Assembly (NCBI GenBank): GCA_028718785.1
Contig: JAQULB010000004.1
Coordinates: 2,525-66,524 of the forward strand
Direction of reading: 5' to 3'
DNA: 64,000 nt
From: Minisyncoccota bacterium
Lineage (GTDB): Bacteria > Patescibacteriota > Minisyncoccia > Minisyncoccales > CG1-02-41-26
The notes under the pieces are model-generated. The model made no database searches, was not told where the DNA came from, and worked only from the letters and a program-made list of their open reading frames with translations. Positions 5,659-24,090 of the stretch are shown here, in pieces. The position numbers and the translations under genes are program-made. Position 1 is the first letter of the stretch. Each line of letters begins with the position of its first letter.

Positions 5659-5695
5659 AAAAATAATAATTGAATTGCCTAAACTCGTTTTTTAT

Positions 5696-5815
5696 CGGGC
5701 ATGGCATAAAACCACATGCATACTGAACCAGTCGTTCAGCTCCATGCATGTGGTCTACGCTCGAAAGGGCGTGGGAGGACGCAAGTTCTCGGCTAGCGGC
5801 GGGTTTTGTGTTTTC
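5696..5815 (+). ncRNA. Candidate structured RNA / 5' leader (family unassigned)
   Basis: A GC-rich island in AT-rich DNA. It has a long hairpin, CCACATGCAT..CTGAAC-cagtc-GTTCAG..ATGCATGTGG (5712-5753). A second hairpin, CGCTC-GAAA-GGGCG (5758-5771), has a GNRA loop and a U-G wobble only on the plus strand. Confidence 0.3.
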
Positions 5816-17227: not shown

Positions 17228-17920
17228 CTACTTTTTAATAATTAAAACTTCATTTAGCCAAATATCGTCATAGCTTCCCTCTTTAAACGACTCTGGAACC
17301 CTTATTTCTACTGGCTCCATTTGCCATTTAATGTGGTATTTTTTCTCCAGTTTAATTAAAATATCCTCTAATTTTTCTCTCGACTCTATTATGCCTATAT
17401 TTTTACTGCCAGGAAAGGTGTGCCAAATCGGGGCAATTCTTATTTCACCTCCAATTTTTAAGGCCTTAATAGCATTAATAATGGGCTTTTTAATTTTATG
17501 AGTCGGAAAAACAGCGCCAACAGAAATAATTAAATCGACCTCTTCTAATGGTAATTTTTTAGAATAATTTCCTTTTAAAATATGCCCCCTGTATCTTTCC
17601 TCTACCTCTTTTGGCTTTACTAAAACATCTAATCCATAGATTTCTTTGCCAATATTATTATCAAGGCAATATTTTACAAACTCCGCTTCTTCCCCACAAC
17701 CCAAATCTAAAATAATTTTATTGTTCAAATAATCTTTTTTTATATCCAACATTCTTAGATAGCGGATAAAACTTTTTTCATTAATACCACTAATCAAATC
17801 CTCCGCGTCATTTGGCATGTAGCTTTCTTCAATGTACCGCCTAAACCTTGAATCCCATTTTTCTTGTGGCAACTCAATTTGCTTTGCTAAAAATTCTTTT
17901 ACTTCTAAATTATATTCCAT
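17228..17920 (-). CDS. Class I SAM-dependent methyltransferase
   Basis: ILDLGCGEEAEF is motif I, followed by a Rossmann-type pattern. Confidence 0.75.
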   Translation of the reverse strand: MEYNLEVKEFLAKQIELPQEKWDSRFRRYIEESYMPNDAEDLISGINEKSFIRYLRMLDIKKDYLNNKIILDLGCGEEAEFVKYCLDNNIGKEIYGLDVLVKPKEVEERYRGHILKGNYSKKLPLEEVDLIISVGAVFPTHKIKKPIINAIKALKIGGEIRIAPIWHTFPGSKNIGIIESREKLEDILIKLEKKYHIKWQMEPVEIRVPESFKEGSYDDIWLNEVLIIKK

Positions 17921-18014
17921 AATTTTTTAAAAAATTGTTAAGCTCTTCAAAGTTATTGCTATGTATATATGGTGGCAAAGCACCCCGTCAAAATCAAAAA
18001 TAACCGCTTTTATC

Positions 18015-18054
18015 ATATTTACTTAAATTTAGCTTTTTGGCTGAGTTTGACAAT
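18015..18054. repeat. Direct repeat S1 (partner is S2 at 18231-18271)
   Basis: ATATTTACTTAAATTTAGCTTTTTGGCTGAGTTTGACAAT versus ATATTTACTTAAATCTAACTTTTTTGGCTGAATTTGGCAAT. Confidence 0.6.
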
Positions 18055-18076
18055 AAAAACAGCTGTTTTTAATTTT

Positions 18077-18124
18077 AAAAAACGTAGTCATCCGTGCCGA
18101 TCGGCAAACTTTTGACACGTTTTT
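18077..18124. repeat. Short variant of the GC-rich long-hairpin element (copies at 53586-53666 and 54592-54671)
   Basis: AAAAAACGTAGTCATCCGTGCCGA-TCGGCAAACTTTTGACACGTTTTT matches the two ends of the 80-bp element. It lacks the central ~32 bp. Confidence 0.6.
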
Positions 18125-18138
18125 AGGAAGTAAGTCCT

Positions 18139-18236
18139 TTACTCCTGCTCGTTGTTGGTAAATTGGCAAATGTCGCGGAAGTCACAGAACTGGCAGTGAA
18201 AGCCCGGGGTGGCCTTAAAGTTGCTTTTATATATTT
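18139..18236 (-). pseudogene. Orphan duplicate of the last 30 codons (plus stop) of the helicase-nuclease gene
   Basis: By my base-by-base comparison there are 10 mismatches in 98 nt against 19990-20087. It reads KSNFKATPGFHCQFCDFRDICQFTNNEQE*, against ...FKDIC... in the intact gene. Confidence 0.8.
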
Positions 18237-18271
18237 ACTTAAATCTAACTTTTTTGGCTGAATTTGGCAAT
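18231..18271. repeat. Direct repeat S2 (partner is S1 at 18015-18054)
   Basis: See S1. It directly follows the helicase 3'-end remnant. Confidence 0.6.
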
Positions 18272-18355
18272 TTTTTCGTAGTAAAAGAAAAGGCCTACTG
18301 GTACGATGGAACAAATGTTTTGTTACCCATGTATCTCATCTCATACATATTAAAG

Positions 18356-18387
18356 ATATAGGCATCGCGTTTTTGCGATGCCTATAT
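18356..18387. terminator. Strong hairpin immediately after the radical-SAM stop codon
   Basis: ATATAGGCATCGC-gttttt-GCGATGCCTATAT has a 13-bp perfect stem. The flanking T-runs are weak. Confidence 0.4.
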
Positions 18388-18389
18388 TG

Positions 18390-19904
18390 TTAAATACTCT
18401 CTAAGCACGCTTCTTTTTTTGTTAAATCTTCTATGGTAAGGGGTTCGCCCTTATAGCTATCAAACGGTCTTTGGATATATGGTCCCCCGAAATGGGGAAT
18501 GCCGTCCATTATAACTTGATAGGGGTCTCCCACCTGCATATTTCCCAACCAAGCAATAAGTCGACAGTAAGCTGTGTCTGTAAAAATGCTAACCCTCAAT
18601 CCCGAACTTCCAAGGGCATGCTTTAAGCTATAGATAACGCGAAAGGCCTTCTTTTTCGCTGTGTAAGCATCTCTCTCTGTCATACTATTAAGTTTTCTTA
18701 CGAAATGCTTTGTATCATAGCTATTTAAATCGAAATCCACGATCTCGTCATTAGAAATGGATTTGAAATAATCTTCTGTGCCAGGAAAAGCAACGAGATT
18801 GAATGGCGTTATTAAATCAAAGTTATCCTCCATCAACTTTGCTTCCGTTATAATAGCTTCAACTGTTTGATTCGGCCAACCGATTATCCAGCCAGCATCC
18901 ACCTTAATTCTATACTTATGAAACTCCGAAACTAATCTTTGGTATTTATCGGGGTTGTTTTGATTTTTATTCGCTCCTTTCAGGTTGACTAAATCAAAAG
19001 ATTCAACGCCTAAAAAGACCTGCTTTATTCCAGCTAAAGCCAAATCTCGAATATCCGATAATCTGATGGCTGTATCTACTTGAGCAAAAATCTTTAGTTT
19101 TTTATTCAATCGTTCATTGAGCTTTATTAGCCCCCATACCAAATGGTGATAGTTTGGAGAACGCTTGAAGTTATCATCTAAAATCATTATTGGTAGACCA
19201 AGTTTATGGGTTTTTTCAATCCATTCAATTACTCCCTCTACATTTCTTGCTCTACTTAAACACATCTCTCTGCCTCGTAAAGTCGTTACGCAACAAAAAG
19301 AACATTTAAATGGGCAACCTTCACAAGTATCAATTCCTGCCATTGAATTTAAACCGTGTTTATATTTCTCGTCAACAATATCTGGAACTGTGGGAAAAGG
19401 CGCTTTGTTTAAATCCACAAAAGACCTTTGCCAATATAAAATCCTTAGCGAATCGCTTACAAAATCATCAATGATTTTTGGTGTGGTTTCCTCTCCTTCA
19501 CCAATGTTAAAAGAAATGCCCTCCCTATTTAGTAAATTATAAACTTTCCAATCTGCAAGGGTAACGCCAGCGCCCCCAATAATTACCTTGGTACCCGATT
19601 TTATAAATTGGCGAGCAATGTCAATAGCTCGAGGCAGTTCAAAAGTTTTTGCGCTAATAAAAACTATTTTATCTACAAAGTTTTTATTGATAATAATACT
19701 TTGAATATATCCATCGCCCCTTTCTAATCTTTCGTTAACGCAAAATACATCAATTTCTACACCTAATTTTTTTGCCGTTGTATTAATTAATCCCTTCATC
19801 ACGCCAAAAATAGGCGGAATCATCAAAACCAAAGAAAACTGAGATACTAACCCCCTATTGTTATAAGAACTTGGAGAAATAATCCAAATACCAAACTTTT
19901 TCAT
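18390..19904 (-). CDS. B12-binding-domain radical SAM protein (class B)
   Basis: CEGCPFKCSFCCV contains CxxxCxxC. The N-terminal Rossmann-like region resembles the cobalamin-binding domain of class B radical SAM enzymes. Confidence 0.85.
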   Translation of the reverse strand: MKKFGIWIISPSSYNNRGLVSQFSLVLMIPPIFGVMKGLINTTAKKLGVEIDVFCVNERLERGDGYIQSIIINKNFVDKIVFISAKTFELPRAIDIARQFIKSGTKVIIGGAGVTLADWKVYNLLNREGISFNIGEGEETTPKIIDDFVSDSLRILYWQRSFVDLNKAPFPTVPDIVDEKYKHGLNSMAGIDTCEGCPFKCSFCCVTTLRGREMCLSRARNVEGVIEWIEKTHKLGLPIMILDDNFKRSPNYHHLVWGLIKLNERLNKKLKIFAQVDTAIRLSDIRDLALAGIKQVFLGVESFDLVNLKGANKNQNNPDKYQRLVSEFHKYRIKVDAGWIIGWPNQTVEAIITEAKLMEDNFDLITPFNLVAFPGTEDYFKSISNDEIVDFDLNSYDTKHFVRKLNSMTERDAYTAKKKAFRVIYSLKHALGSSGLRVSIFTDTAYCRLIAWLGNMQVGDPYQVIMDGIPHFGGPYIQRPFDSYKGEPLTIEDLTKKEACLESI

Positions 19905-19989
19905 TTTAGACCTCCCTATGTTGTCTATTCTTATTTTTAATTTTTAATGGACAATCTTAATTTACTACTTAAAAAAAGTTTTAACAAGC

Positions 19990-22900
19990 TTATTCCTGTT
20001 CGTTGTTGGTAAATTGGCAGATATCTTTGAAATCGCAGAACTGGCAGTGAAAACCCGGGGTGGCCTTAAAGTTGCTTTTATATATTTTTTCAATTGTTTG
20101 GATAATTTCATCTTTTAATTTTTGTTTTTCTTGCTCTGTGCCCAAAAAGCTTATTTTTTCTCCGCTTTCTAAATAATAGTAAGCCAATTCAACTGGATTT
20201 AATTTTAGGTTTTCTTCTGTTGCTATTTGATAAAGCAAAAGCTGGGTCTTATCATCCTTTTCTAATTTATCTTTCTTTTTTCCAGTTTTGTAATCGATAA
20301 GACACACGCCCCCGCCCGCATCGCTACGCGAGCAAGCACTCGCTTGCGAAGCGTTGCGGGCAGGCCCATTAACTTCATCAATGCGGTCAATTTTTCCAAT
20401 CAAGGTGTATTTACCCGCTTTTAAGCGAAAACTTACCTCTAAAGCCAGTTTATCGTTTATTTTTAAAATTTTAGGAGGATTTTTTACAAAATCATCATAA
20501 AAGTTTTTTAAAATCTCTTTGCCTAATTTTTTGTATTCCTCTTTTTGGGCTTTGCTTTCATACCACTCTCCTATCCAATTCTTTTCATAAATCCCCGCCA
20601 AATCCTCAAAACCCGCGGCAACCCGGTTGCCGTGGGTTTCAAAGGCAAAGAGGGATTCTTGGGTTTTGTCGGCTGTTTGGAAATAACTACGCAAGAAATC
20701 ATCTAATGTTTTATGCAAGGTTTTACCAAACGAGAAACTGGCCTTTCCTTTAATGGGTATTTTTAAGATGTGGGCTAATTTGTATTGATAGGGGCATTTA
20801 TTAAAAGCTGTTAATTGGGTGTATGAAAAATGGTCGGGAATAGACCATTTTTCAATATTTAACTCTATGGGTTCTTTGGCTGGCTCGTCTATTTGCTGGG
20901 CTTGTTTTCCTTTGCTTTTTGGCAAGGGTTTTTGGGCCAAGCCAAGCTCCACTAAGAAAAGCGAGGGTTTTTTGCTGGTTTTACCCCCGTAATTTGAGGC
21001 CGAGGTTAAAAATAAACCCTGCTTGGCTCTGGTCATGGCCACATAAAAAAGCCGGCGTTCTTCTTGCAAATGAATATCCCCCTCCCCGGCTTGTTCTTTA
21101 ACAAGCGGTTCTGGAATTTCAATGGCATCTTTTCTTTCAATTGAAGGAAACCGCTTATCAACCATACTAACCACGAAAACATATTTAAATTCTAAGCCCT
21201 TAGCTGAGTGAACAGTCATTATTTTGATTGTGTCAGGGCCTTGGTCAATATCAAACTCCATTTTACCTTGCTCTCCGCTTTCAATTTCCAAAGTTAATTG
21301 GGCTAAAAAATTTTTTAGCGATGGATCAATTGACGCTTCTTTAAAACCCTGTATTTTTTTGTAAAACTGACTCAAAAAATCAATTTCCAGCAATTTATCT
21401 TTTTCAACCAAATATTTTAAAAAGCCCGAGTTATTTAAAAAAGCTACAAAAATTTCCCCAACTGATTTGGTTTTTGCCATTTCAGTATGGCGGGTTATTA
21501 AAGAAAGTAAAAAGGTAATTTTATTTAAAGTTTCGTGAGTTATGCCTTTTACAACTGAAATCTTAGACAATGTTTCATAAACCGACTGAGAGCGCTTGTG
21601 GCTTTCTTGAGTGATAAGCATTATGTCTTTAATATCTATACTTAAAAATGGTAAAGACAAAACTCGATAAAGCGCTAAACTTTCGTGGTAATTATCTAAT
21701 AGTTTTAAATAAGAAATAACATCTAAAATAATTGGCTTTTGAAAAAGCCCCCGCGAGGCCAAAAATTGATATTGTAATCCAGCCCTGTCTAAAGCCAAAG
21801 CAAACGGCACAGCTGAATCATTGGCTCTTACTAAAATTGCAAAATCGCTAAGCTTGGTGTCTGGTTCTTTTTCTAAAATTAAAACAATAGTGTTAGCTGT
21901 CTCTTTGGCTTCTTCGTTAAGCGATTTAAAATGCAAATATTTAACAAAACTTGGCTGTGATTTTTGAGCTTGAAGTTTTTTGTCTATTTTGGAAATAAAC
22001 TCCAATCTATTGGGATTGTTGGCTTGGATAAATTTGTATGACAAATCCAAAACCTCTTGCCCAGACCTATAATTTTTAACTAAACAAATTTCTTTGGCTT
22101 GTGGAAAATCCCGCTTAAACTGTTTTATATTGCTAACTGATGCGCCCCTCCATTTATAGATTGAATTATGAACAACAATTCCATTAGCAAAAAAATTATG
22201 AGTTTTATCAACCTCTAAATCATAAACTGCAATATTTTTATTTTCCTCTTTAATCTCGACAATCTCATCGTAAATAATTTCTCGACCTTGCCTAACAGGT
22301 AAATAATGGCCTAAAACTAAATTTTTAGCTGGTATAACTATTGCGGGGTAACTTCTGGGTCGATCGCTATCCTTCAAAGGATGTTGCAACGCTATATTAA
22401 ATTTTGTTTCCACAATTCCTTCTGTTAAATTTTCGAGTTGCTTGGCTATTTTGCCAATTTCTTGAAAATCCACATTTTCAATTCTAAGCTTCATACCGTT
22501 TTTGGCCTTTAAAAGATTGTATTTTGCTTTTTTTAGCTTCTCTATCGTTGCTTTATCTGAAGTTTCTAAACTTAGAACATGCTTTATAGCAGGGTTAAGT
22601 AAAAATTGTTTTTCTTTTTTTCTAATAATATCTCTGCTACGATAATTTCGGTGGCACATTCTTATATTAATTTTAATTCTCACCTTATTACCCCTATTAA
22701 CGGCATCAAGGGCAAAATGATGAGCGCTTAAATCAATATTTAAATCTTGGGATAGCCGAGCAATATTTTTATCCACTGTTAAATCTCGATAAAGTTTAGA
22801 CAGTAATTCATCTTTAATAACTATATTCTTGCGAACCTGAAAACAGCTGGTTGGTATGCCATACTTTAACGACCATAATGTTTCGTGATATCGTGCTTCT

Positions 22901-24090
22901 ATTTCAGTATTAAACGCCTTAATTGCTAAAATTTTATCAGCTGAACGCTCTAATCTTATTCTAATAATTAATGCATTGGTTACTCCTATCCTCCAGCCAA
23001 TGTCTTGCCTGTGCATTAAATAAACATAGTAAAATTTTTTACTATTATGAGTTTGGGGCACGAAACAAAACATTTTATGGTTATCTGTAGTTTGAACTTC
23101 AAAACCTTTTTTTGTTTTGATAGTTATTAGCATTGCTTGCTTCTTTTTTTTCGAAACTTTAAGTACTTTTGAAACCCCAATGTGCCCCTTACCCACAGCA
23201 GTTAAAACTTCATCACCCACCTTTATGTTCTTAATTGATTTTTTACCTTGAAATGTAGAAACTAAAACATCACCAGGAAGACACTGGTCATCGTCGGCTG
23301 TAACTGTTAAGTTATTTTTTGGCTGGGCTAATAGTTTTATAAGTTCGTATTGGGCTTTGTTTGTGTCTTGAAATTCATCAAGCAAAATATATTTAAATTT
23401 TTCTCTGTATTTTTGCAAAATAGCTGGCCGTTTCTGGAACAATTGCAAACAATAGTTTATTAAATCGCCAAAATCCAAAAAATTATTTTCTAATAATAAT
23501 TGCTGGTAGGCGTGATAGGCCTGAGCCACCTCCCCCACTCTGACCTCTTCACTATCCTCTATTAACTCATCTAATGATGTTTTTAATGAATCCGCATAAT
23601 CTAAATATTCTTTTGGGTAAATCATTTGATCTTTGCATTTTGAAAAATGGTCAAGCAAGGCCCTGATAAACTTATTGGGATTACCCAATGGTTTGTAATA
23701 TTTTAAGTTAAGGTTTTCTAAATTTTGTCGCATTAAAAGCCAGGCGCCCGTTTGATCTAAAAGTTTAAAATCAGGCAGGCCAATATCCAAACCATTTTCT
23801 TTTAAAATTCGCTCAGCAAAACTATGAAAAGTGGAAACCCAAATATCGCTATAGCCAAAATCCATTTCCCTGTCCACCCGCTCTTCCATTTCTAAAGCCG
23901 CTTTTTCGGTGAAAGTTAAAGCCAAAATTTCCTCGGGCTTAGCTAACTCTTTTTCTATTAAATAAGCAATGCGATCGGTGATAACTCGAGTTTTTCCCGT
24001 GCCAGCTCCCGCCACAATTAAAAGCGGGCCATCTTGATGCATAACCGCCTGTTTTTGTTCTGGGTTTAGTTTTTGCAAATCAACTACCAT
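19990..24090 (-). CDS. UvrD/PcrA-type helicase fused to a C-terminal Cas4-like PD-(D/E)XK nuclease; interrupted by an intein
   Basis: Walker A is AGAGTGKT, with DEFQDT and then TADDDQ|intein|SIYKWRGA (motif III). The C-terminal part has GKIDRID...IDYKTG and a 4-Cys set (KCPY...HCQFCDFKDIC). Confidence 0.9.
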   Translation of the reverse strand: MVVDLQKLNPEQKQAVMHQDGPLLIVAGAGTGKTRVITDRIAYLIEKELAKPEEILALTFTEKAALEMEERVDREMDFGYSDIWVSTFHSFAERILKENGLDIGLPDFKLLDQTGAWLLMRQNLENLNLKYYKPLGNPNKFIRALLDHFSKCKDQMIYPKEYLDYADSLKTSLDELIEDSEEVRVGEVAQAYHAYQQLLLENNFLDFGDLINYCLQLFQKRPAILQKYREKFKYILLDEFQDTNKAQYELIKLLAQPKNNLTVTADDDQCLPGDVLVSTFQGKKSIKNIKVGDEVLTAVGKGHIGVSKVLKVSKKKKQAMLITIKTKKGFEVQTTDNHKMFCFVPQTHNSKKFYYVYLMHRQDIGWRIGVTNALIIRIRLERSADKILAIKAFNTEIEARYHETLWSLKYGIPTSCFQVRKNIVIKDELLSKLYRDLTVDKNIARLSQDLNIDLSAHHFALDAVNRGNKVRIKINIRMCHRNYRSRDIIRKKEKQFLLNPAIKHVLSLETSDKATIEKLKKAKYNLLKAKNGMKLRIENVDFQEIGKIAKQLENLTEGIVETKFNIALQHPLKDSDRPRSYPAIVIPAKNLVLGHYLPVRQGREIIYDEIVEIKEENKNIAVYDLEVDKTHNFFANGIVVHNSIYKWRGASVSNIKQFKRDFPQAKEICLVKNYRSGQEVLDLSYKFIQANNPNRLEFISKIDKKLQAQKSQPSFVKYLHFKSLNEEAKETANTIVLILEKEPDTKLSDFAILVRANDSAVPFALALDRAGLQYQFLASRGLFQKPIILDVISYLKLLDNYHESLALYRVLSLPFLSIDIKDIMLITQESHKRSQSVYETLSKISVVKGITHETLNKITFLLSLITRHTEMAKTKSVGEIFVAFLNNSGFLKYLVEKDKLLEIDFLSQFYKKIQGFKEASIDPSLKNFLAQLTLEIESGEQGKMEFDIDQGPDTIKIMTVHSAKGLEFKYVFVVSMVDKRFPSIERKDAIEIPEPLVKEQAGEGDIHLQEERRLFYVAMTRAKQGLFLTSASNYGGKTSKKPSLFLVELGLAQKPLPKSKGKQAQQIDEPAKEPIELNIEKWSIPDHFSYTQLTAFNKCPYQYKLAHILKIPIKGKASFSFGKTLHKTLDDFLRSYFQTADKTQESLFAFETHGNRVAAGFEDLAGIYEKNWIGEWYESKAQKEEYKKLGKEILKNFYDDFVKNPPKILKINDKLALEVSFRLKAGKYTLIGKIDRIDEVNGPARNASQASACSRSDAGGGVCLIDYKTGKKKDKLEKDDKTQLLLYQIATEENLKLNPVELAYYYLESGEKISFLGTEQEKQKLKDEIIQTIEKIYKSNFKATPGFHCQFCDFKDICQFTNNEQE
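20305..20367. repeat. GC-rich palindromic insertion, in frame inside the helicase nuclease domain
   Basis: The sequence is CCCCCGCCCGCA-TCGCTACGC-GAGCAAGCactcGCTTGC..-TGCGGGCAGGCCC. It reads NGPARNASQASACSRSDAGGG, between the GKIDRID and IDYK motifs. Confidence 0.65.
20611..20641. repeat. REP-like palindrome AAACCCG-CGGCAACCCGGTTGCCG-TGGGTTT inside the helicase ORF
   Basis: The same 17-nt core, CGGCAACCCGGTTGCCG, occurs at 35931-35947 and 36162-36178. Here it is read as HGNRVAAGF. Confidence 0.7.
22165..23283 (-). other. Intein (373 aa) in helicase motif III, with a GIY-YIG-like central domain
   Basis: The N-terminal junction is DDDQ|CLPGDVLV, block B is TTDNH, and the C-terminal junction is HNFFANGIVVHN|S. 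Both boundaries were checked at nucleotide level (TGT at 23283-23281, AAT at 22167-22165). Confidence 0.85.

Follow-up and report, generated by a model that had tools for sequence, protein, structure and literature searches.

In a 64-kb stretch of DNA from an uncultured bacterium of the Patescibacteria (candidate phyla radiation, CPR), which was the unit of the present analysis and is referred to as the window, the 3' end of a helicase-nuclease gene occurs twice, once where it belongs and once as an orphan beyond a radical-SAM (S-adenosylmethionine) gene; a promoter-like element, X, is likewise found in two copies (X_a and X_b). The scar is probably (we would put it at about 0.6) the outcome of a single illegitimate recombination, anchored by homology, in which two versions of the locus took part that, to judge from the sequences, lay about 10% apart at silent and non-coding sites, an event of a known kind which would have left a one-off scar in a variable region of a CPR genome. 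The related loci and matching contigs to which the window is compared throughout are labelled by L-numbers (L002, L007, L087, etc.).

Pfam and ORF scans of the window place all genes near the scar on the minus strand, and the same strand carries both copies of the helicase end, named H (19990..20087, the intact end in use) and H' (18139..18236, the orphan). As the preliminary description of this DNA had reported, the two are repeats of each other with 10 mismatches; the repeat search aligns them over 98 nt at 90% identity with 0 gaps, the similarity ending abruptly on both sides. For a 39-nt repeat core, exactly two occurrences were counted in the whole window, 0 being expected from shuffles, and no further copies of H or X were found there. 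The duplicated part comprises the last 31 codons plus the stop, not the last 30 as first counted, and the orphan is indeed still readable to its end: its minus-strand translation is IYKSNFKATPGFHCQFCDFRDICQFTNNEQE followed by the stop, while the intact end reads ...FCDFKDIC..., with K instead of R; a helicase allele with an H'-type end would finish ...FCDFRDICQFTNNEQE. Since H' has no in-frame start codon and TAA stands immediately upstream, the idea that it encodes a functional peptide was rejected, and translation of the orphan would not be expected. A 63-aa ORF in another frame (18123-18314), spanning X_b and H', has no Pfam match and was treated as spurious.

The nature of the differences between H and H' carries the argument. 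Seven of the ten are isolated single-base differences, all of them synonymous third-position transitions; the remaining three make up one codon (AAA vs CGC, hence K/R), at which functional orthologues have K, R, N or Y, and relative to H the orphan has neither indels nor internal stops. At the eight changed codons H' has GGC, TGT, GAC, CGC, GAC, ATT, GAG and GAG. Local duplication was simulated with the in-use copy taking only (or mostly) silent changes and the orphan drifting freely, at kappa values of 1-20; outcomes with ten differences that kept frame and stop and altered no more than one amino acid were obtained at a frequency of 0-0.002. Neutral decay of the orphan after a duplication is rejected (P<=0.002). 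The synonymous-only pattern thus suggests that most of the divergence arose while both sequences ended working helicase genes, i.e. in two lineages, and the lack of degenerative change in H' implies that the event is recent.

The second line of evidence comes from element X. A nested repeat of about 40 bp had been described as bracketing the orphan and a GC-rich hairpin element; the repeat is real and even longer (18006-18054 vs 18224-18272, ~49 nt with 4-5 substitutions and one 1-nt indel), its bracketing role is not upheld. It consists of X, which is conserved in the clade, and of the first codons of a HAD hydrolase gene, and the supposed hairpin element folds as a terminator-like hairpin followed by a run of U. 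In close relatives X is near-identical (AAAATTGCCAAAT[T/C]CAGCCAAAAAAGCTAnATTT) and present in a single copy each, downstream of the helicase and directly before the next gene: it abuts the helicase stop codon in L088, L089 and L108, comes after a non-coding spacer of ~300 nt in L087 and L007, and directly precedes the radical-SAM gene in L002. It has the shape of a sigma-70 promoter (TTGCCA, 17 nt, TAnATT), a promoter scan detects both copies in the window, and it heads an operon of the clade made up of a small radical-SAM gene, a HAD hydrolase gene, sometimes a second HAD gene, and then the B3_4 gene; we infer that X is a promoter. X_b (18237..18275, minus strand) has TTGCCA at 18270-18265, a 17-nt spacer and TAGATT at 18247-18242, and X_a (18021..18054, minus strand) has TTGTCA at 18053-18048, a 16-nt spacer and TAAATT at 18031-18026; the two diverge by ~10%, as H and H' do.

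X_a stands in its native position. Read from 18054 to 18021 it continues into ATGATAAAAGCGGTTATTTTTGATTTTGACGGGGTGCTTTGCCA, the start of a HAD gene (MIKAVIFDFDGVLCH), of which an internally deleted pseudogene is left (17927..18016, minus strand), identified by its matches to L087 and L007. Its first ~15 codons (MIKAVIFDFDGVLCH) are identical at 44/45 nt to L087 4177-4221, and its last ~12 codons, equivalent to the last ~35 nt of the gene (~L007 10878-10911), are fused to the start after an internal deletion that looks in-frame; the result is a 29-codon mini-ORF, stopping 6 nt short of the methyltransferase ATG. Between H' and X_a lies an 84-nt spacer (18055-18138) with the terminator-like hairpin followed by UUUUUU (18078..18124, minus strand; -18.9 kcal/mol, z = -2.3), which is missed by a simple consensus terminator scan and is presumably the old helicase terminator. 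Taken together, H', the 84-nt spacer, X_a and the deleted HAD gene can thus be recognised as a native version of the locus, whose order most resembles that of L089 (helicase-X-HAD). Most relatives have the small radical-SAM gene after X; nowhere in the window is it present.

The flank of X_b tells of a different version. Over the 45 nt upstream of it, 33/45 positions agree with the sequence that precedes X in L087, a match that none of 2000 shuffles equalled. In L087, L007 and L090 this sequence forms the 3' end of a spacer that is structured and non-coding; the window keeps a remnant of that 3' end (18276..18325, minus strand), and the radical-SAM gene with its strong terminator fills the rest of the space which the spacer takes up in these three relatives. 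Because the flank of X_b is orthologous to L087, what lies between H and H' is not a foreign insert complete in itself, but finishes in ~85 nt made up of intergenic DNA and promoter X of the host. At present X_b faces only the orphan, and the arrangement X_b-H'-hairpin would give at most a by-product RNA of ~150 nt.

The sequence itself shows the joint between X_b and H'. Along the minus strand X_b runs on as ...TAAGTAAATAT, passing at the joint into ATAAAAGCAACTTTAAGG..., where the native X_a-HAD junction reads ...TAAGTAAATATGATAAAAGCGG... and the helicase, at the corresponding stretch, ...GAAAAAATATATAAAAGCAACTTTAAGG.... The homology to the X-HAD start (AAATATGATAAAAGC) and the homology to the helicase codons IYKS overlap in the sequence AAATATATAAAAGC (18223..18236, minus strand), i.e. 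over AAATAT(G)ATAAAAGC, an imperfect match of 14 nt; a microhomology of this kind is a hallmark of illegitimate recombination and not of a recombinase core site.

These observations are accommodated if two closely related lineages of Patescibacteria were the parents. Version 'b' would have consisted of helicase, H, radical-SAM gene, terminator, remnant spacer, X_b and a next gene, most simply HAD, so that an intact 'b' parent would show X_b followed by ATGATAAAAGCGG...; version 'a' would have consisted of helicase, H', terminator hairpin, X_a and HAD. At one end, an ordinary homologous crossover would have taken place in or past the shared flanking genes. At the other end pairing would have been misdirected, AAATAT(G)ATAAAAGC at the HAD start after X_b having met the near-identical AAATATATAAAAGC at the IYKS codons of 'a', ~230 nt upstream of the orthologous position. 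The product would run as 'b' through X_b and from there as 'a' from helicase codon 1336 onward, which would explain why both the helicase end and the promoter are duplicated and why each pair is ~10% diverged.

The model for such an event is homology-facilitated illegitimate recombination (HFIR), known from natural transformation (de Vries & Wackernagel 2002; Prudhomme et al. 2002) and, in the summary given in PMC6382021, which cites de Vries & Wackernagel 2002, documented in transformable bacteria with joints of 3-10 bp. The scar shares with it a novel joint at a short microhomology between otherwise non-orthologous sequences and, on the present reconstruction, would also share one homologous anchor, the duplication or deletion of recipient sequence, a moderate divergence of donor and recipient, and the dispensability of a dedicated recombinase. 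It differs in that HFIR was defined experimentally with known donor and recipient, whereas here both parents and the anchor are deduced and DNA uptake by this organism would have to be assumed, and in the length of the microhomology, which at 6-14 nt of AT-rich sequence exceeds the typical 3-10 bp.

Several points weigh against the recombination between two lineages. No sampled genome represents either parental version: the nearest relatives of the helicase reach just 79-84% identity, and the protein clusters of the helicase, radical-SAM, methyltransferase and B3_4 proteins hold no close or useful variants. The two-lineage step therefore depends on how the substitutions fall in only 96 nt. When the ten differences between H and H' were polarised with outgroups (L087, L007, L090 and others) the signals conflicted, silent sites being saturated in these outgroups. 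The homologous crossover is itself deduced, and natural competence, or another route of DNA entry, would have to be assumed for this organism. Moreover, if the small radical-SAM gene (TAAGTAATG..., as in L007) originally followed X_b, the microhomology at the joint would shrink to 2-3 nt.

A purely local origin appears unlikely. It would start from a microhomology-mediated tandem duplication of a ~218-nt unit (helicase end, spacer and X), the spacer of the first copy being later replaced by the radical-SAM gene and both copies drifting. The layout is formally tandem (H ... X_b, H' ... X_a), both repeat pairs are equally diverged, and head-to-tail units of gene end and promoter with a joint in microhomology are what slippage or unequal sister exchange is expected to leave. 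However, a non-coding orphan should have changed at all codon positions, and the 7/7 synonymous third-position changes, without indel or stop, betray a divergence shaped by selection and not a neutral one. In addition, the interiors of the two units, unlike those of a simple tandem duplication, are unrelated (radical-SAM gene vs 84-nt hairpin spacer), and the coding-derived differences are all silent or conservative. No convincing homology was found between the 85-nt spacer after H and the 84-nt spacer after H', or between either of them and the spacers of the relatives, so that at least two extra replacement events would be needed. Orthology to L087 is seen for the 45 nt before X_b and not for those before X_a, which fits two separately evolved versions.

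It is very doubtful, though worth stating, that the scar could be a by-product of intein homing, by which a selfish intein would have carried the accessory radical-SAM gene into a new genome. The helicase adjoining the scar does contain an intein of 371 aa (helicase aa 272-642, window 22165-23277, minus strand), starting with C, ending with HN and followed by S, which splits the UvrD motif between DDDQ and SIYKWRGA; in homing, donor DNA is copied into the allele that was cut, and flanking markers can be dragged along by co-conversion (PMC10643990). An intein-bearing allele from a related lineage would have entered the cell, the resident intein-less allele would have been cut, and repair copying from the donor would have extended across the intein, the remainder of the helicase and the radical-SAM gene as far as the end of X_b. 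Microhomology-mediated joining would then have sealed the far end to codon 1336 of the resident helicase, which had been resected. Consistent with this, the intein is absent from all nine closest helicase relatives and its homologues are rare, all 19 proteins (at most 58% identical) being fragments of UvrD-type helicases from short contigs; no observation connects the two events directly. Unlike in known cases of homing, Pfam finds splicing domains only and no endonuclease domain in the middle ~200 aa, and the scar lies 2.1 kb from the intein. As a separate observation, the only other member of the helicase cluster is an N-terminal fragment from Hainich groundwater, whose contigs stop before the informative region: L169, L170 and L171, three independent assemblies with a helicase N-terminus 92% identical to that of the window, all break off at one shared nucleotide, which follows codon 241 and lies 30 codons short of the intein site. 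The shared break is likely an assembly-graph tangle at the conserved DEFQD motif, heterogeneity in the presence of the intein being the alternative.

The preliminary description had favoured the insertion of a radical-SAM cassette or island, by a site-specific event, into the helicase 3' end, the incoming DNA restoring the gene end and displacing the old one. Of this, a displaced old end and DNA of a second lineage are supported by the synonymous-only differences between H and H'; the site-specific mechanism is not, and the mobile cassette, including a variant in which a circle integrates by a Campbell-type single crossover and brings the replacement end with it, has at best a very slim probability. 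In its favour, direct repeats of a gene 3' end (98 nt, 90%) flank a single gene, the helicase ORF is intact and the copies are allelic, as in islands placed by tyrosine integrases at the 3' ends of tRNA, tmRNA or protein genes, where a repeated 3' end flanks the insert, the incoming copy leaves the target gene whole and its former end comes to lie further downstream. Moreover, in the Logan graph at k=31 the 1851-nt unit starts and ends in the same 30-mer, and a circle is compatible with that graph. Finally, a distant radical-SAM homologue (P0016, 44% identical, on a contig of JGI 3300075153) lies two genes downstream of a phage-type integrase with many small unannotated ORFs nearby, and the family may sit in an island in that genome.

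Against the cassette, Pfam scans of 20 ORFs (~7.5-30 kb of the window) found no integrase or transposase between the repeats or within ~+-10 kb. Recurrent use of the target, for which the same arrangement was sought beside other helicase 3' ends, is equally missing, an orphan helicase end being found at 0/165 other related helicase loci by motif scan and tblastn in GTDB genomes and metagenomes; absent as it is from all relatives, the duplication is not an old shared tandem duplication either, a possibility that the preliminary description had itself raised against its proposal. Among 80 GTDB and 80 metagenome loci fetched with the helicase C-terminus, the nearest with helicases 79-84% identical, none had an empty site, i.e. 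the helicase directly followed by the methyltransferase, and no methyltransferase homologue occurs in any of the ~170 related loci fetched; the methyltransferase may be a separate recent gain where relatives have HAD paralogues. As to boundaries, those of the element do not coincide with the repeats, unlike in 3'-end islands: the last ~85 nt before H' are host X and spacer, so that the 'insert' terminates within host-orthologous intergenic DNA and a host promoter, and the repeats are 90% identical and not identical across a crossover core. Nor is the arrangement that of an integron cassette, there being no integrase nearby and no cassette array, and the hairpin behind the radical-SAM gene being a perfect 13-bp terminator stem, although attC covariance models were not run.

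The radical-SAM gene itself does not look like foreign cargo. Its homologues are rare, ~34 close ones, apparently all from Patescibacteria and in varied contexts; none was found in viral contigs, and those in four other genomes (L002, L004, L006, L167) have no flanking repeats. In L002 a 65%-identical homologue lies in the same neighbourhood, beside a helicase that is 65-75% identical, the two adjacent genes having diverged equally from their L002 counterparts; L172 has a 65%-identical copy immediately before the small radical-SAM gene of the operon. The gene seems to be an accessory that recurs in this operon region, and the cargo would be a single operon-resident gene, at variance with that of integrase islands. 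A contrast in composition, which had been proposed as a check, is not seen (GC 0.36-0.40, against 0.31-0.42 in the neighbours). The homologue in L172 (81-1905) is called in pieces (81-356, 343-1329, 1456-1905), which tblastn aligns over the full length at 65%; it is either a frameshifted pseudogene or affected by contig errors.

The gene content downstream of the helicase differs in every relative. The turnover stretches between the helicase and the conserved block of B3_4, NUDIX and PD-(D/E)XK genes correspond to L002 5775-7868, which holds an ECF sigma factor and a 508-aa protein of unknown kind, L088 7170-11300, L090 955-3685 and L009 3850-9008. As the genes found there in the closest relatives have little in common, the region is a variable one and not a specific target, and the stretch 3' of the helicase-nuclease is a hotspot of gene gain and loss in the clade.

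An assembly artefact, in which two co-existing strains with and without the radical-SAM gene were stitched in series, is the least probable of all, since X_b followed by AAATATATAAAAGCAAC... would be in neither strain and yet is present in the independent Logan contig L001, and the longest identity between X_a and X_b, at most 14 bases, is too short for the graph to have been mis-joined there, even though the source is a metagenome-assembled genome and a 34-nt block is identical in both copies of the helicase end. Exact matches to the window are found in two Logan contigs that are independent and come from two sequencing runs (L001, 20083->18207; L168, 18232->15186), and therefore the sequences across both junction regions are real; both contigs break in the 34-nt block, and the k=31 graph alone does not fix their order. 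The block is shorter than the reads and than the large k-mers of metagenome assemblers, which counts against the artefact.

As to the remaining features of the locus, the window belongs to a metagenome-assembled Candidatus Pacebacteria/Paceibacterota genome, its proteins are exact matches to MDD5738820-23, and the genes follow one another from the subunits of a V/A-type ATP synthase to the helicase-nuclease, the radical-SAM gene, the methyltransferase and a further four-gene stretch (B3_4-domain protein, NUDIX protein, PD-(D/E)XK protein and HAD hydrolase). The helicase gene (19990..24090, minus strand) encodes 1366 aa, and its assignment as a UvrD/PcrA-type helicase fused to a Cas4-like PD-(D/E)XK nuclease rests on Pfam and NCBIfam matches. 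It is separated from H' by an AT-rich spacer of 85 nt (19905..19989, minus strand), with the ribosome-binding site GGGAGG 7 nt ahead of the radical-SAM ATG and with neither a terminator nor detectable homology to relatives, by the radical-SAM gene (18390..19904, minus strand; 504 aa, PF04055 by Pfam), by the terminator of the latter, and by ~50 nt of old intergenic DNA and X_b. The radical-SAM protein is class-B-like (B12-type) and scores under the cut-off of every named NCBIfam family; its gene is, as originally described, the only one between the two copies and has a hairpin of its own, which fold and scan agree is an intrinsic terminator with a perfect 13-bp stem and a 6-nt loop overlapping the stop region (18356..18387, minus strand; -22.4 kcal/mol, z = -6.1). 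The first intact gene past the scar is the class I SAM-dependent methyltransferase (17228..17920, minus strand; 230 aa, by Pfam).

The spacer that precedes X in some relatives is of interest in its own right. In L007 9174-9496, L087 3071-3359 and L090 955-1320 the helicase stop is followed by a conserved promoter (TTGACA-N18-TATAAAT), a non-coding stretch of 250-330 nt and, immediately ahead of X, a terminator. At its 5' end the stretch forms a long hairpin whose pairing is preserved by compensatory changes, and it has no Rfam match. It is a candidate for an unnamed small RNA of this Patescibacteria clade, which survives in the window only as the ~50-nt remnant at 18276-18325. Elsewhere in the window (5676-5790, plus strand) there is a full-length match to the Rfam LOOT RNA (RF03000), at 77 bits vs a gathering score of 46.

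The more exciting reading, that of a new cassette system targeting helicase 3' ends, is removed by these results, and the case counsels caution, in that a single gene between duplicated gene ends need not be a mobile element. The value of the scar is modest and lies chiefly in its being a datable trace of recombination between lineages in an uncultured group: the silent-site pattern suggests that DNA from a lineage ~10% diverged was joined at a microhomology without a dedicated recombinase, and the scar would thus record a specific genetic exchange in uncultured Patescibacteria, whose recombination biology is poorly known.

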